Positions 24,644 to 56,678 of a stretch of 64,000 nucleotides of DNA are shown in pieces. Both the position numbers and the translations under genes were made by a program. The stretch's first letter is position 1, and every line of letters begins with the position of its first letter. The stretch comes from an uncultured Prevotellaceae bacterium (lineage in GTDB: Bacteria > Bacteroidota > Bacteroidia > Bacteroidales > Bacteroidaceae): NCBI GenBank assembly GCA_902778535.1, contig CACYYG010000003.1, forward strand, positions 13,345 to 77,344. Reading direction: 5' to 3'. The notes below the pieces were generated by a model. The model worked only from the letters and a program-made list of their open reading frames with translations, searched no databases and had not been told where the DNA came from.

Positions 24644-24658
24644 AGAAAGGATATTGCC

Positions 24659-26399: not shown

Positions 26400-26410
26400 A
26401 TGTTACTGCT

Positions 26411-28124: not shown

Positions 28125-28194
28125 TCATCAAAGTGTTAAATCAAGAGTTTGTGCCCTCCAGATTCCGCTGTTGGGCAGAATCTTCTTTATTTTG
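28125..28194 (+). promoter_or_regulatory. Promoter of the DUF1896/polyvalent-protein operon: motif copy (28125-28143) plus -7 box TTATTTTG (28187-28194)
   Basis: 26-bp identity (28130-28155) with 10233-10258 and the same spacing to the -7 box. Confidence 0.7.
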
Positions 28195-28435: not shown

Positions 28436-31400
28436 ATGGCATACAACAAGTCAGAGAAGCTGAGAGATAATATCGCGGCCATCAGGACGGCCTTTGATAT
28501 TGAGCGTTCCGGGCGAGAGGCAACGGAGCAGGAGAAGGCCGTGCTCAGGAAGTACAGTGGTTTCGGAGGCTTGAAGTTCATTCTCAACCCTTGTGCCGAT
28601 GATGGTGACATTGAGAAGTGGAGCCGCTCCGACCGTCCTTTCTTCACCGCCACCCGTGAGCTGTATGGCGTGCTCAGCGACTATGCCCGTGATGGCTACG
28701 AATACCGTGACTTCGTGCGTAGCATCCGCAACAGCATCCTTTCCGCCTTCTACACGCCAGTCCCCGTCGTGCAGGCCATCGCCGGTGTCCTAAAGGACAA
28801 GGGTCTGGAGGTCAAGCGCTATCTCGATCCCTCTGCAGGCAAGGGCACTTTTGTAGAAGCGTTCAAACAGGCATACCCTGATGTCTCTGCCACGGCCTTT
28901 GAGAAAGACCTCATCACGGGTAAGGTGCTGAAAGCCCTCTATCCCCATGACCAGGTGCATGTCGATGGCTTTGAGACCATCGATGCCTCCCGCCGTGGGA
29001 CATACGATGTGGTGTCCTCGAACATCCCCTTCGGCGACATCTCCGTCTTCGATGACGGCTTTGCCCGTTCCGGCAATGCTGTCAGGGCGGCAGCCACGAA
29101 GACCATTCACAACTATTTTTTCCTGAAGGCCCTCGACCAGCTCCGTGAGGGCGGTTTTGTTGTCTTCATCACCTCGCGTGGCTTCATGGACTCGCCTTCC
29201 AACAATGCCATCCGTGAGGAGATTATCAGGAATGCCCGCCTTGTAGGTGCTTTCCGCCTTCCCGATGGCCTGTTCGCCGACGAGGCAGGGACGGAGGTCG
29301 GCAGCGACCTCGTCATCCTCCAGAAATACACGGGCTACGACTCCTCCCTGGATCCTGACAGCCTCGCTTTCTGTAAGGTGGAGAAAGGCTTTAAGGCCAT
29401 GAGCGGCGAAGACTACACAGGCATATCCCTCAACAGTCACTGGTGGCAGTCTATGATGGCCCCGGACTCCGAGGCTTTCATCTCCACCAGGATGGAGCGA
29501 GGCACTGACCCTTACGGCAAGCCGACCCTCGTGTTCACCCATGATGGTGACATGCAGGCCATCGCCAGCCTCCTGACGCAATATATGTCCCGTGACCTCT
29601 ATCGTGAATATGTTGACTATTACAAGCTCCATGCTCCGAAGCCCAGGCAGGAGGAGCAGGTCACGGTGTTGTCACAGCCCAAGCCGCAGCAGTCGCGTCC
29701 TGTGCAGCAGGAGCAGCCGGTGCAGCTCAGCCTCTTTGACCTCTGGGCCGAGGAGGTGACGAGCCAGGAGAAACAGCCGTCCATGGAGCCGCGTCCCTTT
29801 GCAGGTGACATCCTCCCTCACTACCGTAACGGCATCCTCGTCGAGGACGGTGGGCAGATGGGCTATCTCACGGGTGTAGGCTATGAGAATACTTTTACCC
29901 CGACTGAGCTGTCTGACGACCAGTCTGGCCGCCTGAGGCTCTATGTGAAGGTCAGGGATGCCTACGAACAATTGTACAAGAAAGAGTCCGAGCAGAAGGT
30001 GGAGCAGCCGTTGCTGCGTGAGGAGCTTAACCGTCACTATGACAATTTCCTCATTCGCTACGGGTTCCTCAACGACCGTAGGAATGCCCGGCTGCTGCTG
30101 ATGGACGTGCAGGGCCGTGATGTGCTGTCGTTGGAGAACAGTGAGGACGGCAGGTTCGTCAAGTCCGACATCTTCCTCCGTCCCGTGTCCTTCAATATCC
30201 ATTTGGATGGCCATGTAGAGACGGCTGTCGATGCCCTGTCTGCCTCCCTCAACCGGGGTGGCGGTGTTGACCTGGAGTATATGGCCTCTATCAGCGACTA
30301 CACCGAGGAGGAACTGCGTGACCAGCTGAAGGAGCGCATTTACTTCAATCCCCTGGCTGGCGGCTATGAGATTGGCGACAAGTTCCTCGCTGGCAATGTC
30401 GTGGAGAAGCTTGATGCGCTGAGAAGCTGGCCGTTGAATGATGACTTGAAGCCCGAATTCAAGGAGGAGCTGGAGCGTTCAATCACTGCTCTGGAGGGTG
30501 TCGTGCCTACGCCCATCACCTATAGTGAGCTGGACTTCAACTTCGGCGAGCGTTGGATGCCCAAGGCCTATTTCTCAGCGTTCGCCACCGAGTTCTTTGA
30601 GACGGATATAAAGATTGACTATGCCCCGCAGCTCGATGAGTTCGTTGTCGATGTGTCGGGCTACAGTGCCAAGCTCAGCCAGGAATTCGCCGTGACGGGT
30701 GAGACGAAGACCTACGATGGTGAAGACATGCTTCGCCATGCCCTGTACAACACCGTTCCAGTGATACAGAAATGTGTCGGTTACAAGCCCAATGGTGACC
30801 CCATCATGGGGCCTGACCATGAGAAGATACAGCTGGCTGCCAGCAAGGTCGACCAGATACGTGATGGTTTCACGGAGTGGATTGACCGTCATCCTGACGA
30901 GTGGAAGAAGGCTCTTGCCGACTTGTACAACAGGAAATACAACTGTTTCGTCAAGGCCAGCTATGACGGCTCCCACCAGACCTTCCCCGGTCTCGACCTG
31001 AAGGGCCTTGGCGTCAGCAAGTATCAGATAAAAGACATCTACAAGTCGCAGAAGGACTGTGTGTGGATGCTCCTTCAGAACGGCGGCGGCGTGTGCGACC
31101 ATGAGGTCGGCACGGGCAAGACGCTCACCATGTGCATCGCTGCCCATGAGATGAAGCGTCTCGGCCTTGCGCATAAGCCCATCATTATCGGCATGAAGGC
31201 CAATGTCGCCGAGATTGCCGCCACCTATCAGGCCGCCTATCCTGGTGACCGCCTCCTCTATGCCACGCAGAAGGACTTCTCCGACCGCCAGAACTTCTTC
31301 AACAGGATGAAGAACAACGACTACGACTGTATCATCATGAGCCATGACCAGTTCACGATGATACCGCAGTCCGCCGACATCCAGCAGAAGGTCATCCAGG

Positions 31401-34400
31401 AGGAGATCGATGCCATCGACGAGGCGCTGGAGGTCTATGCGCGTCAGGGGCACAGCGTCAGTGGTCGTATGCGCTCAGGCCTGGAGAAGCGCAAGCAGAA
31501 CCTTGAGACCCAGCTGCTGACCCTCAATGCCGCCCTTGCCAGCCGTGCCGATGATGTCGTCGACTTCAAGACGATGGGCATCGACCATATCTTCATCGAC
31601 GAGAGCCAGGCCTTCAAGAACCTCGCCTTCTCCACCCGCGACAGCCGTGTGGCCGGTCTCGGCGACCCCAAGGGCAGCCAGCGTGCCCGTAACCTCCAGT
31701 ATGCCATACGTACTATCCAGGAGCGCACGGGGCGTGACCTCGGTGCGACGTTCCTCTCCGGCACCACCATCAGCAACAGCCTCACGGAGCTGTACCTGCT
31801 GTTCAAGTACCTCCGTCCGAAGGCCATGTCCATGCAGGACATCAACAGCTTCGATGCCTGGGCAGCCGTCTTCGCCCGCAAGAGCCGTGACTATGAGATC
31901 AATGTCGCGGGCAGCATCGTGATGAAGGAGCGTTTCAGGCAGTTCATCAAGGTGCCTGAGCTGGGCGCCTTCTATAACGAGATTACCGACTATAAGACTG
32001 CCGCCGACGTGGGCCTGCAGCGTCCTGACATGGACGTGCAGCTGGTGAACATCCAGCCCACCGAGGACCAGCAGGACTTCCAGCGGCGTCTGTTGCAGTT
32101 CGCCGAGAGCGGTGACGGTGACCTTGTCTTCCGTCCTCAGCTCAGTGACAGCGAGCAGAAGGCCAAGATGCTCCTGGTGACGAACATGGGCAAGAAATGC
32201 TCGCTCAGTCCCAGGCTTGTCAATCCCGGCTACCATGAGGGTGATGGCACCAAGATTGGTGTCGCTGCAAGGAATATCAGTGAAATCTATTATCAGTATA
32301 ATAAGCAGCGGGGCACACAGTTCGTTTTCTGTGACCTCTCCACGCCGAAGAAAGGAGAGTGGAGTGTCTATCAGGAGCTGAAAGACCGGCTTGTCAACGA
32401 GCACCATATCCCTGCCGACCAGATACAGTTCATCCAGGATGCCGGCACGGAGAAGAAGAAGAAGGAGTTCATCGACAGGATGAACCGTGGTGACATCCGT
32501 GTGATGATCGGCTCCACCACCATGCTCGGCACCGGTGTCAATGCCCAGCAGCGTGCCGTCGCCGTCCATCACCTCGACCTGCCGTGGCGTCCCAGTGACA
32601 TGGAGCAGCGCAACGGGCGTGCGCGGAGAAAAGGCAATGAGGTGGCCCGTGACTATGCGGGGAACACCGTGAAGTGCTTCGTCTATGCCGTCGAGCGCAG
32701 TCTTGACAGCTATAACTTCTATCTCCTGCAGGCCAAGAGCGAGTTCATCCGCCAGATGAAGACGGGCGCCTTGGCCAAGCGCAGCTTCGACCAGGGCGGC
32801 GAGGATGAGGACAACGGCATGCCGTTTGCCGAGTATGTCGCCATCACCAGTGGCAACAACGACCTGCTGGAGCGTGCCAAGCTGGAGAAGCGCATCCTTG
32901 GCTTGGAGGCTGAGCGCAAGGCCTTCTACAAGCAGCAGCAGGTGACGCAGCAGCGGCTGAACTTCTCCCGGGAACAGGTTGCCCATTTCGATGCCGTCAT
33001 CGGAAAGCTCAATGCCGACAAGAACGCCTTGGAACAGGCCCTGAGAGGTGCTTACCCGGACAGTTCCGATGTCTTTGAGGAGCTGCGCACGCCTCCCTCC
33101 GTCTTTGCTTTTCGTCCTGTCGAAGACCCTCAGCTGCACAGGGTGCGTCTTGACATGGCGCTTCCCAATCCCTATGGTGACTACCTGCAGCAGGCCGCAC
33201 GTCAGGAGGTGAATGGCGAGGTCGTGGTGGCCCGTCTCACCGTGGATGGCCTGGACTGGCCGATAGCCATGTCCTCCAAGACCGAGTACAACCCCAATAC
33301 AGGTGTCAGTCGCTGGGTTGGGAACAAAGTCTCTGTTGTCGGTGGCAGCGGTCTTCACTATACCTATAACAACGGTAAGGTACCGCTCTCTGACAAGGCC
33401 CTCGCCTCCAGGTATCCCTTGGAAGCTCTCTCCCGCATCCCTGAGATCATCAGGGACCAGCAGCGGCAGCAGGAGTCTTATGCGAAGCAGATCCCCGAGC
33501 TGGAGCGCATCGCTGGCAAGGTGTGGGAGAAGACCGGGCAACTGAAGGAGCTGAAAGAGCAGCTGCAGGCCCTTGACCGCAAGATCCAGCAGGACATGGA
33601 CGGCAGGGTGGCACAGGCCGCACAGGCTGCGAAGCCCGAGGAGCTGCCCTTCACCATCACCCACAAGCAGTGGGGCCGTGACCCGTGGGAATTACAGTTC
33701 AAGGTGGCAGACTATCCCTTCCTTAACCATGCCGACCGTGACGGCATGGCGGAGAAATACCATGGCTACTTCCGTATCTATGACGGTATCGTTACTGGCA
33801 ATTTCCGTCATCAGTTCGGTGCTGAGGAGGCCATGAAGGAGCTTTCGAAGCTCAATCTGGAGCACAAGGATGATGTGGAATGGCTGAAGACCGCCGTCAA
33901 GGATGTCCGTGATGCCTCCTGCATCCCCTCCGTACATCGTCTGCGCGAGCTGGGCTATGACCGTTTCGGCAGGTCGTTGACGGGGGGTAATGCCAGGTCG
34001 CTGCGTGCCGTCAGCCTCGGTCCTTATCAGGATGAACGTGTCAGGGCACTTGCCCATGGTGTCAAGGACGGCCATGGCGTGGCCCTCGACGTGGCGGCTG
34101 CTGCCATGGCGAAGGCTTTGGAAGGCACGCCAGTGTCGAAGAATGCCGTTCTCGTGGGCATGCCAGGGCATAAGGGCTATGGCGGCTCCGCCCAGCGTCT
34201 TGCCAAACGTCTCTCCGAGCTATCTGGCATCCCGTATGCCGACGTCCTCGCCAGTGGTGAGCATGAGAGCCTCTATGAATGGAAGAAAGAGCATCCCGGT
34301 GAGGAACTGCCCGAGCTGTTCTTCACCGAGGATGAGCGCACTCCCGTCCCCAAGGGCAGGACGCCCATCATCATCGACAATGTCATTGATACGGGTCATA

Positions 34401-37400
34401 CCGCCTGGGCCGCCGTCGAGGCGCTGGAGGCTGAACCGCTCCTCTTTACTGTCGGCAGCACCGGCCATGAGGACAGCGAGGGTCATGACATCAGGCTGTC
34501 GGTGCTTCCAAAGGGTGTTGACCTCATCGTGGGTGCCATGCCCGATGGTGTGGGACTGACAGGACTCTCAAAGGAAGAATTCGAAGCCTTGCTGAAAAAG
34601 GCACAGGCTGATGCCGACCCGGAAGCCCGCCGTGACCTCCGCAGGCGTGGCGTGGACTGGTACACCGGCCAGCCCGCCTATCTCGTCGCCCATATCGTGG
34701 ACAAGTATGAGAAGGTCTTCTCCAACGAGATAGAAGGTCCCGTCAGGGAGCTGACGGACAAGGGAGCGTCTGCACAAATCTTCCAGAGAGAAGAGCTGCG
34801 TCATCTGACAGACAGTGAAAAGACATCCTTTGATGAGCTCATCGAGAAAGTGAAGGACAATCCCAAGAGTGGCTACAGCTACCAGCAGCTGTATGACAAG
34901 CGCCGTCTGTTGGTTGTCCATGACTATTTGAAGGAGAAGGCTGCCCGTGCCATCGAGCAGGAGGCCCAGCGGAAAGAGCAGGGCACGCTGCGCTATGACG
35001 TGGCCAACAACCAGTGGAGCGGCATTCCCTCTGACGTGACGGTCTACTGTAATGGTGAGCCGGACAGGATTCATGAGGTTTACGGCTATACGCCCAACAA
35101 TGACATCGACCTTGTCTATTTCAAGGCTGAGACGGAGGAGGCCAGCTTCGCCTTTGTCCGTGTCTGGGTGGACGACCACCAGGCCGAGACCCCTGCACAG
35201 CTTGTCATCCGCCTGGAGAAGGAGGGCTATGATGTGGGCCTTCATGGTGAGCGTGGCCGTTATGTGGACTTCGACACCTGGGATGAAGCTGTGCAGTTCG
35301 AGCAGCATGTGCGTGACATCGAGCGTGAGGTACATGCGCCCAAGGCTGCAAGTGAGCGAGTGCAGAGTGATGCTCGCATCAACTCTGCCGAGCGTGGGCA
35401 GGCTCGACCGAAGGTCAAGGCTGAGGTGAAGGAGCTTGAAAGCCCTATCATGCGGCAGTTCCATGACCTGAAGGCCAAGCACCCCGACGCGCTCCTCCTA
35501 TTCCGCGTCGGCGACTTCTACGAGACCTATGAGAACGATGCCGTTGAAGCCTCCCGCATCCTCGGCATCACCCTTACCCACCGTCATCCCACTGCCAGTT
35601 TCCGTTCCCCGAAGGAAGCCATGGCAGGTTTTCCGTTCCATGCCCTTGACACGTTTTTGCCCAAGCTGATCCGTGGCGGCAAGCGCGTGGCCATCTGTGA
35701 CCAGCTCGAAGCGCCCAAGGCCACGGCCAAAAGATCTGTCACGGAGATGGTACAGCCCGGCTTCCGTCCCCGCCTGCAGATGGTGGAGTCAGTGGAGGAC
35801 ATGAAGAATGTCCTTCCCCGCGATGCCCTTCTCCGTGACGCCCTCATTGAACGTATGCGTGAGGCCGGTATCAGGGTGACTACCGATGTAGCCGCTGCCG
35901 AGCGTGTCCTTGCCCAAGAGACCGTGCGTCAGCATGCCGGATCCGCTGCTCCTGTCTTTGTCAGCAATGCCCGCCGTGCTGTGGAGCGCATCCTTCAGGA
36001 CAGGGCCACTCCTGACCAGTGGCTGCGCATGATAGAACGGGCAGGAGGCATCAAGGCCGGTGAAGACCGTTGGATGGGCCTGTCCCTGTGGCTGATGGAC
36101 TCCAAGGAGCGCACCCTGACGAAGCGGCAGGTGCTGGAGTTTATCGATGACCATCAGATACGGGTGGAGGAAGTGCGCTACCGTGAGCCGTCCCCCGTGA
36201 CGGACAGCCTGCGCCTCGACATGATGAACGAGGAGTTCTGGGAGCTGATGGCCGACGGCGAGGAAGCCACCGGCTCGCTCTATGTCGATGACCATGCCCG
36301 ATGGGCTTGGGATCGGTTGGTCGAGCGCTATGGTGATGACTTCCGCAAAAACACCCAGTTTGAGAACGACCCAGTGAAAGGCTGGCATCTGAAGCCTTTC
36401 GAGTGGTACGAGGGCAAGGGGCCGTCAGCGAAGGCTGCCGACTACTACGGCATTGACAGGACTATCAACGACACCCGTCTGGAGTATACCACGGGCGGGC
36501 TGGAGAACAAACGTGAGATAGCCCTTGTCGTGCCGGGCATCGAGAGCTGGCGTGACACGGACGATGTCCATTTCGGTGATGCCGGTGACGGGCGTGCCGT
36601 GGCCTGGGTGCGCTTTGGTGATGCCGTCAGCCAGCAGGAGCGCAGCGAGGAAGAGATACAGGCCATCATCCAGTCCATGCCTTCCGCCGACCAGTGGAAA
36701 GAAGTGAACTATTTCCATGCCGTGCCAGGGTACAGGAACTTCTACAACCTGAACCGCAACAGTGTCTCTTATGCCGACTGTATTCTCGAGAAGGACGGGC
36801 AGTATTCCATCCTGCTCAGCCAAGAAAGCACGAAGTCGTTGATGGACGGTGAACGGAATGTCGCTGCTGCGAAGCGTGTCGGCGGCATCTTCAGCAGTCT
36901 GGCAGACGCCGTTGATACCTACAATGAGTTTGTCGCCCGTCGTGACCGCTTCATCGAGGAGAAGACGCTGGTCATCGACGAGATACAGAGCCAGCGCCAT
37001 CAGGAGGGCCGTGAGAGGGGTTACAACCCCAAGGTGGACATCCGTGGCTATGCGGTGCAGACAGACGAAGACGGTAACTATCTGGTCACCCATCCCGATG
37101 GTGTCAGCGAGGACGGGCTGGAGCGTATCGCCTCACGTACCATCCGTTTCTACGATGCCGGCAGCCCTGAGAGGGCCATCCTCCTTGCAGCCCGCCTAGA
37201 CCAGAATATCTATCCGTCCTCGCGTGTCCCCGCCGCCCCCTTTGAGAAGAACTGGCATGAGCTGGCCATGAAGCGGATGCTTCGCTATGCTGCAGAGAAC
37301 GGCTATGACCGGGTGGCATGGACAACCGGCAACCAGCAGGCAGAGCGCTACAGCCTCGGTGAGCATATCGACTTTGTGAGTGCCGAGCCTTACGAGGCGC

Positions 37401-40400
37401 AGCTCCCGTCGGAGTCCAGTGGCTTCGATGTGACGCTGCACACCCGTGGCATGGCCACCGTTGACCTCTTCGTCACCCGTGATGGCATCATACAGAGCGG
37501 CTATTATGGCGACAAGGAAGACTATTTCGCCGGCCAGCCGCTCGCCAAGGTCGTCGGCAAGAGCCTCACGGAAAAGATTCTTGCCGTTCAGGACTGGCAG
37601 CGTTTTGACAGTGAAGACCTTCATATCGGGGCAGAGGGCATGAACACGTTCTATGACACGATGCTTGTGAACTTCGTGGACAAGTATGGTCGGCAATGGG
37701 ACGTGAAGACCGAGGATGTGGAGATGCGCCACCTTGACATCACGGGCAGGATGCACTCCGTCGCTGTCACGCCGCAGATGCGTGACGATGTGAGGAAGGG
37801 CCAGCCGATGTTCTTCCTGGACGGCAGCCGTCAGGCTTATGGCTTCACCTATGACGGGGAGGTCTATGTCGACAGGCGTGTCGCCACTGCTGAGACTCCC
37901 ATCCATGAGTACACCCACCTGTGGGCTGAGGTACTGCGCCAGCGCAACCCGAAGGAATGGGAGAACATCGTCTCGCTGATGAAGGGGTGCCCGGAGCTGT
38001 GGAAAGAAGTCACTGGGCGTTACGCCCATCTGCATGATGAGAGTGACATCGCCGAGGAAGTTCTTGCCCACTATAGCGGGCAGCGGGGCTACCAGCGGCT
38101 GATGGCTGACTATGGTCGCCGTCAGGACGTGACGGGCCATGCCATCCTCGACATTCTCTCGGAAGCCCTTGCAAGGCTCTGGAAGACTGTTGCCGATTTC
38201 CTGCATATCCACTATACCACCAAGGAACAAGTCGCCGACCAGGTGCTGAGTGACCTGCTGAACCGTGTCAATCCCTTGGACTACAAGACAGAGGTCATTT
38301 CTGCCGGAGCGGTCCTCTCAGGCCGTATAACGGAAGATGTCGTGCGTGCCATGTCTGAGCAAGGCACACGGTTCGAGACCCTTCATTCCCTCCATGACCG
38401 TGCGGACTATCTCACCTTTGGCGAAGTCAAGGACTATGGTGGAAAGCCTTTTGTTGATGTCATCAGCCATTACCCCAATGGCAGGGCGGCCCGTCTTAGT
38501 TCACCTCTGGACAGCGAGATGCGCTACCTGAACGATGAAGTCATCAAGATGACCGTGAAGGACGACCTCATCCTGCGGCTGCCGCCCTCGGGTGCATACC
38601 GCGAGAGCCAGGAAGAACAGGTCGAAAGCGCGTATTTCAAGGAGTGGTTCGGTGACTGGCAGCATGACCCTGAGAAAGCCTCCAAGGTTGTGGATGCTGA
38701 CGGGCGTCCGCTTGTCGTGGAGCATGGCACCCATGCCTCGTTCACAGAGTTTGACATCAGCCGCCTGGGTCAGAACAGCGGTGATGCCGGGCATTACGGT
38801 GCAGGCTTCTACTTCGGCACCAAGGCACCCGGATGGCTGGAAGCTCCTGTCACCATGAAGGCCTATCTTGACATGAAGCATCCATTCGAGATCGATGCTG
38901 GCATTCAGAGGAATATCTATGACTATCTGAAGGAGCATTTTGACCAGCCGGCCCTGCGCAAGCTGGTGCTTACCGAGAATGGCAAGGAGCTGACCCTTGG
39001 CGACTACATTGACCATATCAAGGCTGTTGACAACCTTATCAGTGGCAATATGCCATATGTCGAAGAGCAGATGTCGAAGGATGCCGAGCTTCAGTATTAT
39101 AAGCCCGATGTCCGTCTGGATGTATGGCGTGAGCATGAGCTTTCGCGCCGTACCGGCTTCATCATCCCCGGTTCCCTTCCATACGTCATAGGTGAGATGA
39201 TCGGCTCCGAGAACTTCACTATAGGCTTGAAGGAAGATGGCTATGACGGTGTCATTGCCACTCACCACTATGATGATGGTCACGAATACAAGGATTACGT
39301 CGTATTCGAGCCAGGCCAGATTAAGTCCGCCACGGACAATGTGGGGCTGTTCAGCAAGAAGTCCAATGACATCCGCTATCATCTTTCAGGTGAAGAGGTA
39401 TACACCACAGTAATGAAGGAAGGAACGCAGCCCAGTGTCTCTTCCCGCCATCTGACACCCCAGGACCGTGAGGCCGGAGGTGCCCTTGTGGACCATCTGG
39501 CCAGGATGGGCATCACTGTCCATACCGACAATAATGAGAACCGCCGCATCCTGAAGGCTGCCCGACTAGACAACAGCGAGGCTGGCAAGGTACGCCATTT
39601 CAAGACCCAGGACGGCAATACCTATGGCTTCGCCTATAAGGGACAGCTGCACCTCGACCTGCGGAAGATTGATGCGGAGCTGCCTCTCCATGAATATGCC
39701 CACCTCTGGTGTGAGGCCCTGCGCCGCATCAATCCTGAGAACTGGAACCGTGTCGTGTCCATGCTCAGGGACGATGCCGCTTCCTGGCAGTTCGTCCGTG
39801 CCGCCTATCCCGAGCTCCAAGACGCCGATGATGTCGCCGAGGAGGTCATCGCCCATTACAGTGGCCGGCATGGCGCTGAGAAGCTGCGTGACGAGCTGGC
39901 ACGGATGACCCCTCGTGATGCCAACTATGGCAGCCGTTGGGGCAATATCTTCCAGAATGTCAGCAAGGCCATCCAGGACTTCTGGAAGCATGTCGGCGAC
40001 TCCCTGAACATCCAGTACGTCAGTGCCGAGGATGTCTACGACCAGATCCTTAATGACTTTGCCAAGAAGGTCAATCCCGTGGCAAAAGTTGAGAAATACC
40101 TCAAGGAGCGTGACAGAATTTATGAGCAGTGCGTCGAGGGCGGTGACCTCGACACGGCAGCGGCCATGTTCGAGGAAGCCCTTCAGGAGCACGTCGGGGG
40201 TGGTGTGACGCCATTCATGGCCGTTGACGGCTATCGTGGCAAGCTCGACCGTCTAGCGCGTGATGTCAAGGGCGGCTCTGACGATGCCATCCGTCGTGCC
40301 GCCGCCCTCATGGCACCTCTCGTCCCCGTCTATTCCGTGCTGGTGCCTGCTCCCGGCCATGAGGGCTATGCCACTGACATGCTGGCTCTTGCCAATGCCA

Positions 40401-43400
40401 TCTCCCAAGAGACGGGTGCCCCTGTCGCCGATGTCCTGAAAGGGGATCCCAGGGAACGCCAGTATGACGTGAAGAAGGCCACCGGCAAGCCGATGACCGC
40501 CGATGCCATGGGCATCCGCATGGAAGGCGTGTTGCCTCAGGGCTATATGCCTGTTGTCATCGACAATGTGGTGCACAGCGGTAATACCGCCGAAGCCTGT
40601 GTCAGGGCCTTGGGAAAGGGTGTCGTGCTCTCACTGGCCAGTGCCGTCAGCCAGGAGCGCCATGTATCTTCGCTGATGAGCCTGGAGCCTGTCGTCTATG
40701 ACAAGGAAGGTGTGCTCATACCCCTCAGCGAGCGTTTCAACCTGAAAAGCAGATACCTCGGCAGGGCGATGGAGTACCGTCCTCTGGATGAGGGATTGCA
40801 TGTGGCCGAGCCGTTGACCATAGACATCCGCACGGGAAACAGTCATAGCCCGCTTGACAGCTATCTCGGTTCCAAAGCCGTCTATGACGCCGTTCTCTCC
40901 TTGTCAGGAAGCCGAGACAAGCTGGTGGCAGGCTATGAAGATCCTGACAGCGGCGACTATGTGTTTGTCGGCACCCATGCCCATGTCATGCGGTCGTATG
41001 ACAAGGAGCATCTTGGCAGCTTCTCGCAACATGACGGCCATGATGCCGTGTATCGTATCCACCTGTCAGATGGCAGCTTGTATTCTGTCTCTATCCTCTC
41101 TGCAAGCCTGGTCCATGACGGGTATAACCTTGCTGTCATAGGCAAGGAAAAGGTTCGGGAGCTGATGGACTCGAAAGGTCATGCGACGCTTCAGAGCCTA
41201 TCGCGCCCTGTCGTCCGCAGTGCCGTGCAGCTCGACCTATTCAGGGATGCACCTGCCATGGAAGAATCTACGGAAGCTGCCGCTGTCCATGCCAGTCAGG
41301 GAAGTACTGAAGACACCTCCCTCGACCTCACCGCCCTCCACCTGCGCGACCTTGCAGATGGTGAGCAGTGCTTCGTGGAACGCCGCTACCGTGAGAACGG
41401 CTTCTTCAGTTTTGTCGGTGGCGAGTCAATAGATTCCGCCGAGGATGTGGCTTTCATCTTCAGAAGTCTTGAAGACCAGAGCGTGGAGAACAGCTTCCTT
41501 GCCATGGTGAAGGACGGCAAGCCGTTGGTCATCCATCTGGGCATAGGTACCTATAATGAGGTGCCTGCTCCCATCGAGAAGGCTCTTGTCGCCTTCAATG
41601 AGCTGAAACCGGATAAGGTATGGTTCGTCCATAACCATCCCAGCGGGTCGCTGAAGGCCAGCTTCCTTGACATGAAGATGCATCAGCGCATGCAGGAGGT
41701 CTTCGGTGCTGCCGTGCAGCCGAGTATCATCATTGACACCACGTCAGGAAAATACGGGGAATACACTGATGTGTACAGTGTTGACCTTCCGCTCTCGGGT
41801 AATGACGAAAGCCACATGGTATCTGTGCCTACCTTCCAGTTCGACCGCCAGGTCTTTTCCAAGGGATGGAACCCAGAGCATTCCATGATGGCATCATCGG
41901 CAGCCTCCATCGCCGGTTTTGTCAGCAGCCAACGCCTTGGTGAGCGTGACAAGCTCAGCCTTATCGTGCTTGACCAGGCACAGCATATCACGGGGAATGT
42001 CTTCATTCCCTGGAACACTACCAAGGCTATTGTCAAGGGTGGCCATGCCGGTGAGCTTGCCGGCTATGTCCACCAGATGGGCGGCAACCGCTGCATCATC
42101 TATGGCAGTGAGGACGGTGTGCGCATGACAGATACGGAAACGATGACCATGCTCTCCAAGCAGCTGAAGTCCTTTGGAGTGCGCCTTGAAGACATCATGT
42201 CCGTCAGCAGGAGTGCTTTCCAGGAAGGCATCTTCTATGCCAAGGAGGAAGACAGGGGTTATAGTATGGCCGGTGAAGCCGTCATCGACGAGACGGTAAG
42301 GCCCATCCAGGGGCTGGAGAACTATTCAGAGGCTGAGATACAGGACTCTGTCAGGGAATATTTCGGTTCCATGCTGGAAGGAACGGATGTTGATGTTGAG
42401 ATTGTCGGAATGAAAGTCATCGGCAGCCGTATGGAAGGTACAGGCACGGCAGACAGCGACCTTGACGTTCTCTTGGAGTACAAGGGCGATTTCAGCGAGG
42501 ACAGTCTCTTCAACATCCTCAATGATGCCGATGACCGCCTGTATATTGAGGGCATCCCTGTTGACATCAATCCCATCACGGAAGGCAAGAGCGGTACCAT
42601 CCGCGAGTTTCTGGAGCGTAATGCGGGCTACAGGAAGGCGGAACCTGTTGATAACGATACAGCGAAGAAGTCTATGAACCATGATGAGAACGACATGTAT
42701 GTGGAGCCAAAAAAGTCTTCACATCGAGATTTAGACGCTACTGTCAGGCAGTTGTTGTCCCGTGATGACTCTTTCCGCTATCAGATGCTTGATCGTCTGC
42801 GTGTTGACTGTAACTATTTCCTTGGTCATGGCGGAAGGTATGAGGGCAGCCTCTGGGCCGGAAATGTCAATGACCATATAGCTGTCATGAAGGAGCTGTG
42901 GAAGTCCCTTCCCGAGAAGCCGGAATGGCTGACGATGGAGCAGATTGACGCATATGCCAGGGACATGGGGGCAGGGCTGGACTCTGCCGTCGAGCATTAC
43001 TCGGATGAGCAGTCTGCCATTGTCAAGGATGCCGTCTGTGATTACCTTCAGGGTGTTCGTGATGACTATTACCCCCATGCGATGATGGAAAGGGCTGAAA
43101 TCGACATGGCCGTCCATCATGAAGATGTGCGTTCCACCGAGGATGCGGCCCGTGTCGCCCATGAGGTCAGCGTGGAGATGCTCCTTCGTGCGGAGTCCGT
43201 GGAGCCGGGTATCGTGGAGCGATATACAGGAGAGTCCTTGGGCATGGAGGCAAGACGTATGGCTTCTGATGCCACTGCATACGCCAGTACTGTGCTGTAT
43301 AACAGGGAGAATGACATGGAGCGTAAGCTGGAAGAAAAAGTGTCTGTCCTTAATATAGCCCTGAAGACGGCACGGCCATCTGACTTACGTGCCATGGGCA

Positions 43401-46400
43401 TGAATGCTACATTGTATTCGATAGAGAAAAAGGATGATGCCCATTTCGCCCTGATAGAGCATGACGGTGATGATACCCGTTTCGCCACCAGCTGGATTTC
43501 AGCCGTGGCCGTCGAGGGACATATGGATGTCATCCTAGGTGCAGTCACCGAAAACCAGCAGAAAGAAATAGCCGCTGACGAGTATATCCGTCAGGAGTTT
43601 CAGGAACATCTTGACAGCCTTCGTGACATCCTTGGCGAGGCAAGGGACATGATTGCGGACAAGATTGTCATCCGTCCCGTGACGATTGAGTTGGGAGGAG
43701 AGTCCGCGACTGTTGAACAGATAGAAGAGATTAACGGCAAGTACCTTGCGGGCAACAGCCAGGACTTGTTGTCAGACCTTTGCAGCTACCGTGACGTAAC
43801 GGAACTGGCCACTGCCGTCCGTGAGGCCCAGATGGCACATCTGTTAGGCAACGGACAGATAGACTTCGTGAAGCGTACTGGCTCACCCCAGAAGTTCGTC
43901 AATGACACCCTCACGAATGAGATGGCATATATCAGGGACATCAGCTGCCATGAAGGGCGTGTCAGCATCAACGGAGCCATAGACATGGACGGAACACCCG
44001 GCTATGTTGTCGGGCTGAAGGACTTGCAGCCTGACGGCATCCGTCATCTGTTGGAGGAGGTCAGGAAGGTAGTGGAGTGGAAGCCGGAGCTGAACCTCAC
44101 CGCAGACCAGGCCCTGATGGTGGCCGAAGCTCATCACCTCTATGATGAGGTGGAACAGGACATCAAGGGCGGCCTGGAGCCGGAGCTGGCATTGCAGAAA
44201 TACCATATCATGCCGGATGAGGAACGTCTGGCCGAGATCATTCAGATGAACGACCCTACGCAGCTGCCGCCTGTCGATGCCGTCAGGCTTCTGCTTGACA
44301 AGGCTATCCCCAATGACGGCGATGTGCTGCACCTCGACGGGAGCGGTGCCCCCATTGACCTGCAGTACCAGTCCTTCGGATGGCAGCAGCTGGACGACGT
44401 AAAGTATATCAGGCATATCGGTGACGGCTATGTCGCTGGTAACGGCGAGATGTCTATTGATGTCAGCCGTCTTGCCTCCGGTCCCGATGGTGACTATTTG
44501 GTGAAAATCATTAACGACAATATTAAACTCATGGAGGACAAAACTATGGAAGAAAAGAAACAAGAAGTGGCACAGGTGCAGCAGGAGCAGCAGCCTGAGC
44601 AGAAGAAGAAAGGCTGGAATATCGACTACACGAAGTATTCCATGCCGGAGGGAGTCAGCGTCGAGAAAGCCCAGGTGTTCAAGCTGACTCGCGGTGAGAA
44701 CGAAGGACGATGGGCCGTCACTGCCGTCGTTGACGGGCAGCGCAAGACCCAGGTCATGTTCAAGAACGATGTAGACGCTTTCTTCGAGAAGGATGAGCAG
44801 GGACAGCTTAAGCCAACCAACCCTACTGCCGAGCAGCTGGTGGCCAAGTATTTCGCGCCGAAGGCTCAGGAGCAGGCTGCCGCTGTCCAGGAAGAACAGG
44901 GACAGCAGGCTCAGCAACAGGAGCCTGAGCAGCAGGAGGTCCAGGCCACGCAGGATGCCGGAAAGCGCAAAGGCTGGAATATTGACTATACGAAGTATTC
45001 CATGCCGGAGGGCGTGAATGTCGAGAAAGCCCAGGTGTTCAAGATGGATCAGGGTGACAATGCCGGCAAGTATGCCATTTCTGCCGTCATCGACGGACAG
45101 CGCAAGACCCAGGTCATGTTCAAGAATGACGTCGATGCCTATTTCAGTAAAGATGAACAAGGCAACCGCAAGGCTACTGCCGAGCAGCTAGTAGCCAAGT
45201 ATTTCTCTCCTAACACGCAGAAGCAGCCCATCCCCGTCAAGGAGGAACAGCAAGAGCAGCGGGCTGGGGAAAAGCAGGAGGCCCAGGCCAAGCAGGATGA
45301 TGGCAAGCGGAAAGGCTGGAATATCGACTATTCCAAGTATTCCATGCCCGAGGGTGCGGTCGTTTCCAACTCCTTTGTCAAGAAGGATGACAAAAGCGGC
45401 AAGTACCGTCTCTTTGCCACCATCAACGGTGAGTTCCGCTCTGCCGACCTGTACCCCAACGACCGTCAGGCTTTCTTCGAGAAGAACGAGGCCGGTGAGC
45501 GTAAGGCCACCACGGAGCAGCTTGTGGCTAAGTATTTCTCCAAGTCCACGGCTGAGAAGATGGGGCTTGCTTCCGTGGCAGAACAGCCACGGCAAGAGAC
45601 AAAGCATCTCGGTACCTATGATGTGCCCGTCTGGGCGGTGGCCGCCTTGCAGAACGGCACCGATGCCTATGATGGTCTGCAGGAGGATGAGATTTCGGAG
45701 ATAGAGCATTTCCAGGAGCAGTTCGACGGCCCGCTCTCCTTCGATGTCCATATGGAAGACCGTAACGAGTTCAATCCCTCGCCCGCCTTCGGTGCTGCCT
45801 GTGAGACTGTCAAGGTCGATGTGTACACCTTCGTGGAGAAGGTGAGCCGTGCACAGGCCGAGGTGCGTGAGAACCTCGAAGAAGATAAGGTCGCCGAGGA
45901 CATCAATAAGGAGCATGAGGAGAAGAAGCAAGAGGAGCAGAAGAAGGAGGGCAAGCAAGATGTGTCCGCCGGTCTGGCTCTCCAGACCGCCCTCTTGGTC
46001 GGTGCCCTCCATGCAGCTGCAGAGAAGGATGGCATCTGGATGAACAGGCTGTGCAAGCAGGCTCCCGCTTTCATGGGCAAGGACACGAAAATCACTCCGT
46101 TTAACAGCATGGTGATGGCTTTGCACTCCGATGCCAATGGCTACAAGAGCAATCTCTATACCACCTTCGCCGCTGCCAAGAATGACGGTGTCAGCGTCCG
46201 TGGCAAGGAAAAGGGACTGCCTTATAACTGGTATGATTGGGACAAGTACGTCAACAAGTACGTCAATAATGATGTCATCGACCGTGCCGCCTACCAGGCT
46301 CTGCCGCAGGAAGAGCGTGAGCTGTACCGTGTCCAGGGCAAGAAGGAGATGAAGCCCATCTTCAATATCGACCAGACGACGCTGCCGATGGAGAAAAAGG

Positions 46401-48220
46401 AGGAGTACAAGACCCTCGTGGGTGCTGTTGACCAAGAGACGCAGGAAGAAATGTCGCCAGCAGAGAAACAGGCTGCCCGTCAGGAGCGTTTTGCGGAGAT
46501 GACCGAGAAATATCCCGACAGCGTCAAGCTCTTCCGCGTCGATGACGGCTATGAGATCTATGGCGAGGATGCTGAGAAGGCTGCGGACATCCTTAGCCTT
46601 CCTCTCGTCAAGGAAAAGGATGGCGATGCCAATGTCCTTTCTACCTCCGTCAGTTTCCCGATGGAAGACCTCGATGCCTATATTCCAATTCTTGTCCATG
46701 AAGGCACAAAGATAGCCATCTGTGATGACCTGGAGGATGCTGACCTACGCCGTCACACCCCGGAGGCTGAGCTGTATGCCGCCTCCGACAAGCTGGTGGA
46801 AGCTATCCGCCTGACGGGTGTTGACATCGACAGCAATGGTGTCACCCGTTATGATGCTGGAAAGAACACACTCTATGTCGCTGACCGCACGCAGACGAAG
46901 CCAGGTCAGGAGATGACCCTTGCCATCGACCGTGCCTGTGATGTCTACCGTGCCGCCGTCGCCTACACGGGTACTGAGGACAGGCTGAATCGCGGACAGC
47001 GCGAGCGGATGCTTCCTGAGGACCGTGACAAGTATGACCGTCTCGTCCAGGAGCTGACGGCAGGTGTGATGATGACCCGTCAGGGCCTTCCCGCCACTAT
47101 CAGCGAGAAGAACCGCGAGTTGGTTCCCTATTGGGAGCGTGAGCTGAAGGAAGACCCGAAGCTCCTTGACAGCGTGGAGCGTGACGTGAACAATGCCGTG
47201 CAGGTGCTAGACAAGGTTGCTGCAGGACAGCAGGTGGACTATGCCGCCATGCGTGGTGAGCGTCCTGCGGTCATGACACGCCCTAGGATGTATACCATTG
47301 CCAGCGAGCTGGCCACCATTCCGAGCACTGAGCATAAGCAGGCAGTTATCGTGAAGGATGAGAAAGCAAAGGCTGCTTCCGTTATACTTCCCTCCGGGGC
47401 TTCGTCGGAGATGAACAACGAGATCCCGGGCATGAACAAGAACCGCTATGTCGTTGCGCTGAAGCGTGAGGGCTTTGACGATGTGAAGTTCTACAATGCC
47501 GGTGGTGCTCTCGGCCTTAACCAGCCCAATGAGTTCTTTGCTGACAAGCAGGTGGAGGTGGCTCACCTGAAGCAGTACGAGCTGATTACGGACGAGCGCA
47601 TCGACTTGTCGGCAGAGCTGGCAAGAACCAGCCAGGTGGAGATAGAGAAGGTCACTGCCATCAGGAATGACAAGGAGGATTGGGTGTTCTATGTGAAGCC
47701 TACCGAGGGTGAGGCTGTCACCATTATGCCGGATGCTGCCGACCTCCATCGCTTCTTCAATGCCGTCAAGGATGAGAATTTCGATGACGTGCGTCAGGAA
47801 ATGGGTAGGAAATACTATGCCCTTGCCCAGCAATTCCCTCATCTGAAACAGGACTTCATCATGCCCAAGGTGGAGAATGTGGACCTGTCACGAATCAGCT
47901 ACGCCACAATGTTCAAGTCCAAGTTCCATGAGGGCAAGGCTTGTGTCACGTGTGTCTATGATGACGGCAAGAAGCTGGCTACGGAGATTGACCGTGGCAG
48001 CAAGGAGTGGCAGCGTCTCTGGCTCGTCGATGACCAGAAGGGCTATAAGATTGCCGTGGCTGCGAAGCTCTTTGAGAATGAGCTGAACAAGGGCCAGGAG
48101 AAGAATGTCGTTCAGGCCCAGGACGAGCCGGTCAAGGAAACAGAGATGGTCACCGTCGATGACGACCAGGAAGAGGTTGAGGAAGAGCAGCAGGTAACAC
48201 GTCCTTCTTTCCACAGATAA
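28436..48220 (+). CDS. Giant (6594 aa) polyvalent protein: N6-adenine MTase + SNF2 helicase (DarB-like) followed by PRTase, MutS-I, zincin, ART-like, RadC/JAB, nucleotidyltransferase, LPD11-like, repeat and ArdC-like domains
   Basis: LDPSAGKG (~28820), NIPF (~29021), DHEVGTGKT (~31097), IDESQAFKN (~31595), MEQRNGR (~32600); downstream motifs are itemised in the findings. Confidence 0.92.
44600..45545 (+). repeat. Three ~350-nt coding repeats beginning K-G-W-N-I-D-Y-[TS]-K-Y-S-M-P-E-G
   Basis: Copies start at ~44602, ~44965 and ~45305, each ending in EQLVAKYF and separated by Q/E-rich linkers. Confidence 0.9.
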
Positions 48221-48227: not shown

Positions 48228-48270
48228 GCTCATGGGTATGCCTGGAAGGTGTACCCATGAGCATTTTCCT
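48228..48270 (+). terminator. Intrinsic terminator after the giant gene
   Basis: Perfect 11-bp arms GCTCATGGGTA (48228-48238) / TACCCATGAGC (48252-48262), extendable with G-U pairs, followed by ATTTTCCTT. Confidence 0.65.
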
Positions 48271-48277
48271 TTACGAT

Positions 48278-49750
48278 ATGGAGAAACAGGCATTTTTCGA
48301 GAAATACGCTCCCTGGGCGATGGAGCAGCAGCAGAAATATGGCATTCCCGCCTCCGTCACGCTGGCACAGGCAGCTATAGAATCCTCCTGGGGTGAGAGT
48401 TCCCTTTCCAGGGAGGATAAGAATATGTTCGGCATCCATGCCACCCGGGGCTGGGTCAACAGCGGCAAGCCCTATGTTGAGCGTAATGACATGGGGATGG
48501 TGAAGTTCTGCAAGTACGGCAGCGAGGCAGAGAGCTTTGAGCATCATTCCCGCTTCCTGATGGAGAACCAGCGTTATTCCCGCTGCTTCACCTACGCCAG
48601 CGATGACCATGCCCACTGGGCACAGGGTATCTGTGATGCGGGCTATGCCTACCGTCCCCCTGACAATCCTGACCGTTATGCCAAGACCATTGAGGCCATC
48701 ATCAACGGCAACCATCTGGAGCGTTATGACCAGATGGCCATTGCCGATGCCCGGCAGAAGGGTCTTGACATTGGGTATATGAGAGGGCAAACGACAGACT
48801 TCCTGGTCAGTGCGGCGCAGCAGGAACATGCGGGTGCTGCCGTGTCCGGCAACTATGCCTTCCCATTGTCAGGGGAGCTTGTGATGACCGACGGTTTCGG
48901 CAAGAGTCCCACTAGCTACAGAGGCCATACCCATAATGGCATTGACCTCCGTGCCAATCATGTCGATGTCTTCGCTACTGAGGATGACGGCAAGGTGGTC
49001 GGTGTCGGCAGCGATGCCGTTAGCGGCAAGTATGTCATCGTTGTCTATGACCGTCCTGATGGGTCGAAGTGGCGTGTATCCTATTGTCACCTCTCTGAGC
49101 AGGATGTCTCAGTGGGAGATACTGTTACGGCTGGCATGAAGGTCGGTGTATCTGGCAATACCGGCAACAGCACGGCACCGCATCTGCACCTGACCGTCAA
49201 GCGGCAGGAGGCGGGTGAGGACTCTTTCAAGGCCGTTGATCCCTTGGGCTACCTCGCCGAGATTGCCGTGGCCGGTCGGCTGGAGGGAACCGTTACTAAA
49301 AAGGGCACGGGTGAAGACCTGCTTGCCGACTTGAAGCAGAACATCCGTATTGACGATGCCGGACGTCGGCAGGCTGAAGCCGTCATGGATGACGACAGTC
49401 TTCTCGCCAGTCGGAGCCAGTCTTCAGACCCCAAGGACTGGCTTGGCCTGCTTTTGGCCAGTCAGGGAGGCGAGGGCGCCAGCCAGAGCGCTGGCATCAG
49501 CGGTCTCATCTCCACCTTGTTCATGGGTGTCATAGCCCTGGCCATGCAGCTCGACCATGGAGAAAGCCAACAGCAAGAAGACAGCCAGCACAGGATGACA
49601 GCCCTCTCTGACAGTCAAGAAGACCGTGCCACCGTCATCGAGCGCAGGCGCAACTGTGCCGACGTGAATGCCCTGCGGCAGAACGCCTCCCTTAATTTCG
49701 ATATAGACTATCCAGAAGAACAGCAGGCCAACAATGTGCGCCTGGCTTAA
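48278..49750 (+). CDS. Glucosaminidase (GH73/FlgJ-like) + M23 peptidase
   Basis: IPASVTLAQAAIESSWG...NMFGI; HNGIDL, YCHL and HLHL motifs. Start 48278 preferred because ATG 48257 lies in the terminator stem. Confidence 0.88.
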   Translation: MEKQAFFEKYAPWAMEQQQKYGIPASVTLAQAAIESSWGESSLSREDKNMFGIHATRGWVNSGKPYVERNDMGMVKFCKYGSEAESFEHHSRFLMENQRYSRCFTYASDDHAHWAQGICDAGYAYRPPDNPDRYAKTIEAIINGNHLERYDQMAIADARQKGLDIGYMRGQTTDFLVSAAQQEHAGAAVSGNYAFPLSGELVMTDGFGKSPTSYRGHTHNGIDLRANHVDVFATEDDGKVVGVGSDAVSGKYVIVVYDRPDGSKWRVSYCHLSEQDVSVGDTVTAGMKVGVSGNTGNSTAPHLHLTVKRQEAGEDSFKAVDPLGYLAEIAVAGRLEGTVTKKGTGEDLLADLKQNIRIDDAGRRQAEAVMDDDSLLASRSQSSDPKDWLGLLLASQGGEGASQSAGISGLISTLFMGVIALAMQLDHGESQQQEDSQHRMTALSDSQEDRATVIERRRNCADVNALRQNASLNFDIDYPEEQQANNVRLA

Positions 49751-49774
49751 TTTCATTAACAAACCTTTTTCGAT

Positions 49775-50416
49775 ATGATTAAATGTGAAGTAACCAAGCT
49801 CTGTGCCGTCATCGACCGTCAGGCACAGGTCAAGCAGGGAAAGGACGGTCATTCGTTTCTGTCTTTCGTTGTGAAGCTGACCATCACCGGACGTGACGGA
49901 AGCAAGGCAGTTATCTCTGTCACCGTGTCTGTCAATGGGGACGAGAGTCAGGCTGGTCTCTACTACACGGGAAGGCGTGTGTTGATGAGCGGCACACTCA
50001 TCCCTCGCAAGAAGGGTGACACCGTATTCTTCAACCTACGTGCGGAACAAGTAGAGTTCGTCAGCAATGCTGAGGATGATACCATCGAGGGTGACATGCA
50101 CTTCCAGGGGAAGACCGGCAAGGATCGTCCTGGCAAGCCGGCCGTCGAGCAGCGTACCGACAAGAAAGGCAACACTTTCCTTACCTTCCCGGCTTATTCG
50201 TCAGAGCGTGACGGTGAAGGCCGTGAGTACCTCTGGGTGCGTTTCCTTGACTTCTCTCCCGAGAACAGTGATTTTGTACAGGCAGGAACCTTCATCGACG
50301 TGAAGGGGACGCTGCAGATAGGAGTCTATAACAACAAGCCAGACTTCGGTTGTATCGTCAGGGAGATTCAGCCGTGGGTAGTCAAAAAGGAGGAAAGCAA
50401 TGAGACAGAACAATAA
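49775..50416 (+). CDS. ssb: Single-stranded DNA-binding protein with two tandem OB folds
   Basis: Two SSB-like halves (…SFLSFVV…GRRVLMSGTL and …TFLTFPAY…GTFIDVKGTL) and an acidic tail. Confidence 0.7.
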   Translation: MIKCEVTKLCAVIDRQAQVKQGKDGHSFLSFVVKLTITGRDGSKAVISVTVSVNGDESQAGLYYTGRRVLMSGTLIPRKKGDTVFFNLRAEQVEFVSNAEDDTIEGDMHFQGKTGKDRPGKPAVEQRTDKKGNTFLTFPAYSSERDGEGREYLWVRFLDFSPENSDFVQAGTFIDVKGTLQIGVYNNKPDFGCIVREIQPWVVKKEESNETEQ

Positions 50417-51698: not shown

Positions 51699-51701
51699 TT
51701 G

Positions 51702-51750: not shown

Positions 51751-51782
51751 AAATCACAAGAGGAAATGATGCAAAGACAATC

Positions 51783-56676: not shown

Positions 56677-56678
56677 TT

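Follow-up and report, generated by a model that had tools for sequence, protein, structure and literature searches.

Does a frame of 6594 codons in a Bacteroidales genome encode one working protein, and what would such a protein do for the mobile element that carries it? The question is raised by a window of 64,000 nucleotides, the whole stretch of DNA analysed here, from contig CACYYG010000003.1 of an uncultured Prevotellaceae bacterium (assembly GCA_902778535.1, positions 13,345 to 77,344). An earlier note, made from the letters of the sequence, had read the frame at 28436–48220 as an unusually long DarB-like polyvalent protein. Conjugative elements are believed to defeat the immunity of recipient cells chiefly through polyvalent proteins. 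We find that the gene product, called the giant protein below, is one intact, transcribed and selectively maintained polypeptide of 744 kDa, that it belongs to the already described polyvalent-protein class, and that it probably serves an integrative conjugative element (ICE) of a rumen Bacteroidales as a multi-effector protein for establishment and anti-defence.

A single gene under purifying selection

The single open reading frame (ORF) reported earlier was confirmed: its translation of 6594 residues contains zero internal stops and has a pI of 5.1, and the start codon is correct since homologues align from residue 1. The gene is single-copy in its genome, which measures 3.9 Mb at 52.7% GC and is 100% complete. 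In run X1, a bovine gut metagenome that is probably the source sample, unitigs free of mismatches tile the ORF, and their depth is even, at ~95. Copies of ~97% identity occur in runs of other studies (X2, X20 and the sheep run X18), and the alleles of these runs differ in frame, by 6, 3 and 75 nt plus +1/−1 pairs a few bases apart. The same architecture is present at 98% identity on metagenome contigs L018 and L019, and a 6594-aa protein of 98% identity is encoded on five further contigs.

Third codon positions hold 27 of the 40 single-nucleotide polymorphisms listed for the ORF, and dN/dS lies between 0.02 and 0.44 in each of 23 modules, unannotated ones included (Nei–Gojobori estimates against L019, L020 and L022). 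The reads, the 97–98% identical copies in independent assemblies and the dN/dS values rule out a pseudogene and also the assembly chimera that the earlier note had named as a refutation of its reading. Metatranscriptome contigs of 97–99% identity are spread over the whole ORF, at a low depth of 2–8.

One stretch of the gene is polymorphic. A 75-nt in-frame segment at 35342–35416 (aa 2303–2327, in the linker preceding MutS-I module 1) is present here and absent from the ~97% identical alleles of runs X2, X20 and X25. Over ~70 nt around this segment, depth rises to a fivefold spike in four metagenomes, and many alternative sequences adjoin it on the left and on the right. The segment was considered as a repeat element of its own genome; just one weak extra copy was found there (C23:354–418, 74% identity).

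A constant head and tail around a cassette-like middle

Relatives were searched with residues 1–5000 of the giant protein as the query; 149 were found and 120 listed. Half of the matches listed (60/120) have at least 6000 aa and 27/120 have at least 6594 aa, the longest reaching 7967 aa, and a polyvalent protein of 12,242 aa has already been published (Iyer, Burroughs, Anand, de Souza and Aravind, 2017, J Bacteriol, PMC5512222). The giant protein is thus of ordinary length for its own family, and the earlier description of it as unusually long has to be dropped. All named genome hits are Bacteroidales of the gut or rumen, from the Bacteroidaceae, Prevotella, Muribaculaceae, Porphyromonadaceae and Dysgonomonadaceae.

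Module borders were placed from coverage and from the statistics of high-scoring segment pair (HSP) ends against the relatives. The homology breakpoints delimit about 24 modules, which are arranged into three parts: a constant head (aa 1 to ~2170), a cassette-like middle and a constant tail (~aa 5830–6594) (Table 1). Some twenty effector and DNA-binding modules lie between the methylase-motor head and the tail. Modules of the middle have been gained, lost and reordered among relatives. The closest of these, P0003 (83% identical), is without exactly the ART module (aa 3285–3658) and LPD11; some relatives are entirely headless, and the majority of species representatives encode the head by itself, as a gene of 1650–2450 aa. 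The modules are autonomous, since they are also found as free genes or in other orders. Internal paralogy is extensive, with two phosphoribosyltransferase (PRTase), two MutS-I and two HExxH modules and three tandem repeats of ~80 aa.

Pfam recognises 13 domain instances from 10 families in the giant protein, and several more by weaker matches. Together with WH_1, DUF8437, Helicase_dom and DUF8438, which are precomputed in the head of P0002 (98% identical, same length), and with two HExxH motifs, these bear out the earlier count of at least a dozen recognisable modules. Local Pfam matches cover 22% of the residues. Sequence searches of the PDB with the dark regions aa 1400–2330, 2450–3420 and 3380–4340 found nothing, nor did PDB searches with the alignment profiles A1, A2 and A3.

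In the 73% identical relative L017, the tail is a separate ORF of 721 aa (19989–22154) with an overlap of 4 nt to a gene of 4962 aa, a layout that may reflect either a protein naturally made in two pieces or a frameshift.

Table 1. Features of the giant gene and of the conjugative element around it (window coordinates).
Feature	Residues	Position (nt)	Strand	Description
tra operon, Bacteroidota-type		10295–28105	+	DUF4134 x2, DUF4133, TraG ATPase, DUF5045, TraM, TraN/DUF4138, M23 peptidase, unknowns
Promoter region		28125–28194	+	19-bp motif TCATCAAAGTGTTAAATCA, then ~62 bp on a TTATTTTG −7-like box (sequence check)
DUF1896 gene	69 aa	28222–28431	+	Pfam DUF1896, E 5e-16; stops 4 nt ahead of the giant ORF
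Giant polyvalent protein gene	6594 aa	28436–48220	+	744 kDa, ATG start, single ORF
DarB-like head	1–1830	28436–33925	+	N6-adenine methylase, WH_1/DUF8437, SNF2-type motor, post-helicase region
N6_Mtase/Eco57I	104–299			Pfam
SNF2/ResIII	~870–1150			Pfam
Helicase_C	1329–1400			Pfam
PRTase module 1	1868–2000	34037–34435	+	Pfam Pribosyltran aa 1919–1999, E 3.5e-7; motif IDNVxxTGxT
MutS domain-I module 1	2330–2450	35423–35785	+	Pfam MutS_I aa 2337–2442, E 7.5e-30
A+B+HExxH unit, ~800 aa	2495–3284	35918–38287	+	unannotated
HExxH module 1	3117–3284	37784–38287	+	HEYTH at aa 3157; part of A+B+HExxH unit
ART-PolyVal ADP-ribosyltransferase	3390–3655	38603–39400	+	Pfam aa 3420–3639, E 1.7e-18
HExxH module 2 fused to PRTase module 2	3670–3884 and 3932–4120	39443–40795	+	HEYAH at aa 3752
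RadC-type JAB	4300–4620	41333–42295	+	Pfam RadC aa 4333–4423, E 7.3e-6
Pol-beta-type nucleotidyltransferase and LPD11	4624–4745 and 4765–4845	42305–42970	+	Pfam
Three tandem ~80-aa domain copies	5394–5474, 5514–5591, 5628–5703	44615–45544	+	unannotated
DUF6926	5728–5796	45617–45823	+	Pfam, E 1e-7
ArdC-like tail	5830–6594	45923–48217	+	ArdC-N, MutS-I module 2, metallopeptidase-like remnant, conserved C-terminal region
Glucosaminidase+M23 gene		48257–49750		downstream backbone
213-aa ORF	213 aa	within 48257–53996		downstream backbone, between glucosaminidase+M23 and complete ArdC
Complete ArdC		50400–51698		ArdC-N+MPTase-PolyVal; two ORFs downstream of the giant
DUF4099 gene		52022–52786	−	downstream backbone
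M23+glucosaminidase gene		52971–53996		downstream backbone
Type IV coupling protein (T4CP)		63091–64000	−	C-terminal part, at window end

The head resembles phage DarB-like proteins

The PHROG profile phrog_10089, 'DarB-like antirestriction', covers aa 7–1735 of the giant protein with an E of 3e-173. Phage DarB-like proteins, such as those of Klebsiella phage LASTA and Burkholderia phage BcepMigl, align over 85–100% of its first 1500 aa at 28–31% identity, and like the giant head they fuse an N6-adenine methylase to an SF2/SNF2 motor. The methylase motifs DPSAGxG and NIPF and the motor motifs GTGKT, DESQ and QRxGRxxR are conserved in 96–99 relatives. For P1 DarB itself, the alignment is confined to the methylase (aa 102–298; tblastn, 31% identity, E 1e-18), and there is no full-length homology. 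The earlier description of a DarB-like methylase–SNF2 start therefore stands for the DarB-like profile, which matches the first ~1735 aa, and not for the true P1 DarB. Further differences set the two apart: P1 DarB is an injected virion protein that shields DNA in cis from type I restriction, whereas the carrier of the giant protein is an ICE whose locus offers no context of phage genes, and the giant has ~4800 extra residues after the head.

Other counterparts are the stand-alone methylase-helicases of Bacteroidales conjugative transposons (~1650–2450 aa; Muribaculaceae MF13079, Palleniella muris, Bacteroides neonati and others), which share ~50% identity (39–55%) with aa 1–1720. They occupy the same position in their elements as the giant but end after the head, to which the giant adds an effector array and the ArdC-like tail. 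Behind the motor, PF28556 (DUF8438) could be placed only indirectly, after Helicase_C. DUF8438 was also considered as the HExxH module and rejected, as headless relatives with three HExxH copies have no DUF8438.

An ArdC-like tail without HExxH

Pfam places ArdcN at aa 5876–5939 and MutS_I at aa 6017–6105 of the tail, which also matches the anti-restriction profile phrog_7245 (profile positions 216–304). The ArdcN match is partial (profile positions 34–98 of 123, 25–26 bits against a cut-off of 22.6) and does not lie at the N-terminus of the protein. Homology is strong to the Prevotella ArdC-like protein P0321, of 1249 aa, whose residues 509–1229 are 37% identical over 735 aa to aa 5866–6594 of the giant; both contain ArdC-N, MutS-I, a stretch resembling the MPTase metallopeptidase and the C-terminal region. 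In the abundant 1249-aa Prevotella ArdC-like proteins the first half is a complete ArdC. The giant tail, by contrast, keeps only the part of the MPTase that follows HExxH, and reads YRAAV where the first ArdC unit of P0321 has HEMAH. The C-terminal HExxH metallopeptidase (MPTase-PolyVal) of ArdC, known from plasmid pSa/R388, is absent from the tail. The complete ArdC of the giant's element is a separate gene.

Comparison with the polyvalent class

Polyvalent proteins of conjugative elements and phages have been defined as combining from 2 to 15 or more unrelated catalytic or nucleic-acid-binding domains in one polypeptide, often of more than 2000 aa, that is encoded beside packaging or type IV secretion genes and delivered into the recipient during invasion (Iyer et al., 2017). 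The giant is a multidomain polypeptide encoded by a conjugative element near type IV secretion system (T4SS) genes, and it carries the hallmark ArdC-N, methylase–SNF2 dyad, ART-PolyVal and LPDs. With the published class it shares this dyad, ArdC-N, MutS-I, ART-PolyVal, RadC, the pol-beta nucleotidyltransferase (NTase), the PRTase, LPD11 and the adjacency of T4SS genes; MutS-I co-occurs with ArdC-N, as reported. The assignment of the earlier note to a polyvalent protein of a conjugative element thus holds: the gene lies behind a tra operon, shares its contig with a T4CP, a relaxase and an integrase, and encodes ArdC-N, ART-PolyVal and LPD11, which are hallmarks of the class.

ArdC-N lies in the C-terminal tail of the giant, whereas it is often N-terminal in the published set. 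There, the NTase is found mainly in Firmicutes and the PRTase mainly in Proteobacteria and Verrucomicrobia, while the giant has both in Bacteroidales. About three quarters of its residues have no local Pfam match, and its HExxH modules are not the MPTase family of Iyer et al. (2017) as modelled by PF18818.

Enzymatic and binding modules of the middle

The methylase, the motor, JAB, NTase and the HExxH modules all have intact catalytic motifs. ART-PolyVal is a full-profile match (68 bits against a cut-off of 31). The JAB motif E...HNHPSGxxxxSxxD and the NTase motif GS...DLD...D, the latter within the match to NTP_transf_2 at aa 4659–4725, are both intact and conserved, and LPD11 follows at aa 4779–4844 with 101 bits against a cut-off of 27.

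The first PRTase copy scores 30.1 bits against the Pribosyltran cut-off of 26.3. It is self-similar to aa 3940–4059, and Pribosyltran matches weakly at aa 4021–4082. The loop of type I PRTases that binds phosphoribosyl pyrophosphate (PRPP) is marked by two acidic residues (D-D or E-D) ahead of TG-T, and classical members, as well as ComFC, show D-D there. In the giant, the corresponding positions read D-N in both copies (aa 1979–1981 and aa 4042–4044; nt ~34370 and ~40559), and this I-D-N...TGxT form is found in more than 95% of ~130 aligned relatives. The D-D of the PRPP loop has been described as catalytic (Iyer et al., 2017). The D-N PRTases may form a clade whose chemistry has changed or whose role is limited to binding.

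HExxH modules and an unannotated unit of ~800 aa

The only HExxH motifs of the giant are those at aa 3157 and aa 3752. They lie in two modules of ~170 aa that are 38% identical; the second forms a conserved pair with PRTase module 2. Across 36 aligned copies, the H, E and H of the motif, a Glu 47 residues downstream, two Trp and an SG are invariant. All 36 copies end in VNP(L/V), and in the giant this end coincides with the two strongest homology breakpoints, the one at aa 3283 collecting 110 HSP ends and the one at aa 3884 collecting 69. Among 171 relatives, 123 carry the module, 217 times in all; what follows it is most often a PRTase (83 times) or an ART (38 times). It is present in 3375 representative protein clusters.

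No Pfam family, PDB sequence or PDB fold matched these modules. PF18818 (MPTase-PolyVal) finds nothing in the giant at E≤1 and nothing among the 36 copies, and comparison with the neighbouring gene's MPTase domain by hhalign gave a probability of 0.1%, so that the modules could not be assigned to MPTase-PolyVal; weak SprT-like hints were the only others. AlphaFold2 (AF2) models place three strands ahead of the HExxH helix, a predicted fold that is compatible with a minimal zincin (zincins have HExxH on a helix behind a beta-sheet and a third ligand further downstream), and a Foldseek search of the PDB returned no zincin and nothing significant for either AF2 model. Of the 'zincin domains' of the earlier note, two real modules with an invariant H-E-x-x-H...E thus survive, and the tie to MPTase-PolyVal or to any Pfam or PDB family does not. 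Self-processing by them, co-transfer and expression on entry, which the note had proposed as possibilities, are hypothetical.

The first HExxH module closes a unit of ~800 aa, termed A+B+HExxH, that is newly described here: it has no Pfam or PDB match, by sequence or by Foldseek, and is also found free-standing, as proteins of 860–1100 aa without any Pfam domain that often form paralogue arrays beside ArdC-type genes. Its alignment (A2) comprises 46 sequences with 61 invariant columns, and its AF2 model is fairly confident (pLDDT 78.8). In BFVD, Foldseek matched this model to proteins of uncultured Caudovirales (E 7.6e-21) and to phage polyvalent/LPD proteins.

A tripled domain that ends free effector-like proteins

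The second new part is a domain of ~80 aa, of which the giant has three copies and which forms the C-terminal end of many free effector-like proteins. The three repeats are homologous to the final ~70 residues of free A+B+HExxH proteins (hhalign probability 95.8%, E 8e-9). A hidden Markov model locates the domain 13–25 aa before the stop in free ORFs with differing N-terminal parts, namely A+B+HExxH, MuF_C and unknown ones; an ORF of NTase and MutS-I (in L003) has a weak match (E 0.004) 36 aa before its stop. In genomes of the same family, the domain closes proteins composed of PRTase, MutS-I and three repeats (624 aa), of MutS-I and three repeats (429–445 aa) or of three repeats only (379 aa). 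It was detected in 10/101 genomes of the family and in 0/80 other genomes drawn evenly across the order. The domain has no Pfam or PDB match, and neither BLAST nor hhalign gave a signal for DUF4099 or DUF6926, with which it had been compared. Its placement at the C-terminus of effector-like proteins that are otherwise unrelated would suit a tag used in delivery or anchoring, a role that the domain may have.

Two loci, L054 (6675–18562) and L055 (5111–18946), contain arrays of three to five paralogous or unrelated Pfam-less genes, each ending in the 80-aa domain. The arrays adjoin ArdC-N/MPTase/MutS-I genes, an AbiEii gene or Mfa-like/Lcl_C genes, and look like 'unbundled' counterparts of the giant. 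Beyond the window, the same ICE encodes two Pfam-less proteins of 665 aa (L057 3597–5594, minus strand, equal to C3:80596–82593) and 306 aa (L057 7193–8113, minus strand, equal to C3:84192–85112), both with weak matches to the repeat domain ~95–120 aa from their C-termini; homologues of the 665-aa protein in related genomes are 44–47% identical.

The giant gene belongs to the backbone of a conjugative element

The giant gene sits at the distal end of the transfer-gene cluster of a Bacteroidales ICE. The tra operon lies upstream, and a Mob_Pre relaxase and a tyrosine integrase are encoded on the same contig beyond the window. With the preceding DUF1896 gene, the giant forms a two-gene unit with its own promoter-like region, and this pair recurs in relatives (synteny in L017 and L053). 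The order of the downstream backbone genes (48257–53996) is conserved in relatives as well.

The TCATCAAAGTGTTAAATCA copy at 28125 matches motif copies at 10228, 52886 (plus strand) and 52876 (minus strand) at 17 of 19 positions. The 19-bp motif, TCGTAAAAGTGTTAAATCA, precedes TTTG-type −7 boxes at the tra operon, at the DUF1896–giant pair and at two divergent genes near 52.9 kb, and is likely the site of a common regulator of the ICE backbone. A promoter motif common to the tra operon suggests that the giant is expressed together with the transfer genes.

The backbone has 55% GC, close to the genome's 52.7%. Two blocks of low GC (36–40%) interrupt or flank it: 3725–9984, with a PLD nuclease, a SecA-like protein and a ThiF/E1-like protein, and 54619–62882, with DUF1848 and a 1735-aa DEAD helicase protein. 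The right block is inserted cargo, since relatives have the T4CP directly behind the M23+glucosaminidase gene and otherwise the same gene order. The idea of a high-GC island in a low-GC host was discarded; with the genome at 52.7% GC, the backbone is host-like and the low-GC blocks are the foreign cargo. In the tra operon, the TraG ATPase gene (980 aa, 11952–14894, plus strand) is mirrored by a nearly coextensive open frame of 979 aa on the minus strand (11958–14897).

Proposed function of the giant protein

That the giant is a multi-effector establishment and anti-defence protein is supported by the integrity of the ORF, selection, transcripts, the ICE context, synteny, the shared promoter motif, the hallmark domains, the DarB-like head, the ArdC-like tail and the autonomy of the modules. 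The identity of the protein and its context are the basis of this reading, from which we infer how it might be delivered, what it would target and how it might be processed. The giant would be made in the donor together with the T4SS and would enter the recipient with the transferred strand, or act on that strand at once; the indirect evidence for such delivery consists of the tra-type promoter motif and the ArdC-like tail. Its tail, ArdC-like and putatively binding single-stranded DNA, and the MutS-I modules would hold it on the DNA, while the head would methylate the incoming DNA in cis, by which that DNA would evade restriction. Recipient defences or signalling nucleotides would be disabled by ART, NTase, PRTase and JAB, with the modules working as beads on a string or being freed by the HExxH modules.

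Several points weigh against this reading. We know of no experiment on any member of this Bacteroidales family and of no methylation motif. For a multi-domain protein of 744 kDa, passage through a T4SS is hypothetical, and which DNA enters first would depend on the position of oriT. The PRTase activity is uncertain because both copies have D-N rather than the catalytic D-D (Iyer et al., 2017), and the low-depth assembled metatranscriptome contigs used as transcript evidence may contain DNA carry-over.

The size of the protein, which makes T4SS passage demanding, is also an argument for an unlikely alternative, in which the giant has the same role and is never translocated. It would be expressed only in the cell that holds the element, either the early recipient after second-strand synthesis or the donor preparing its DNA, and the fusion would serve only co-expression or stoichiometry. 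Many relatives split the modules into separate genes, so that physical linkage is not essential, and leading-region expression of anti-defence genes is documented for plasmids (PMC11541004). The promoter motif, however, is that of the tra operon and not an obvious single-stranded DNA promoter; ArdC-type proteins have been reported as transferred (Iyer et al., 2017); and the relaxase gene lies ~24 kb from the giant gene, so that a leading-region position is not evident.

A bolder extension of the establishment role, to which we give equally little weight, would make the giant a self-dismantling 'effector train' built from free effector genes. In such a train the ~80-aa domain would serve as a delivery or anchoring tag, addressed to the Bacteroidales T4SS or to the transferred strand. 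The HExxH modules, whose VNP(L/V) ends always fall exactly on recombination junctions, would be cis-acting proteases that free the neighbouring PRTase or ART after entry.

It is highly improbable that the giant instead serves in defence or exclusion, shielding the host or its ICE from phages and competing elements, with a methylase–SNF2 pair that marks self DNA, as in BREX or DISARM, and effectors that act as abortive-infection toxins. Candidate defence cargo does lie on both sides of the ICE backbone, but the giant is part of the conserved transfer backbone and not of the variable low-GC cargo. The weak NCBIfam matches to DISARM DrmD, BREX PglX and the MADS methylase are far under their cut-offs (14–35 against 500–1500 bits) and concern generic helicase and methylase cores only. 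ArdC-N, ART-PolyVal and LPD11 are hallmarks of offensive polyvalent proteins, and no partner nuclease or immunity gene adjoins the giant. Almost no credence is left for an artefact, a chimeric assembly or decaying pseudogene fusion never made as one protein, which could appeal to a metagenome-assembled source held by bovine gut metagenome runs and to the depth spike with many alternative flanks at 35351–35420, and which is contradicted by the error-free, evenly covered unitigs, the 98% identical protein on five other contigs and on L018 and L019, indels between alleles that are all in frame, purifying selection on every module and dozens of relatives of 6000–8000 aa.

Implications

As a polyvalent protein, the giant extends the catalogue of a known class usefully but without surprise; it contributes a clear map of its modules and three unannotated parts that lend themselves to experiment. 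The three parts are the ~800-aa unit shared with phages, the widespread HExxH module and the candidate C-terminal tag domain. With intact catalytic motifs, selection on every part and free-standing versions of its modules, the locus is a well-resolved example of this class in the Bacteroidales, whose conjugative elements move genes among gut and rumen bacteria.

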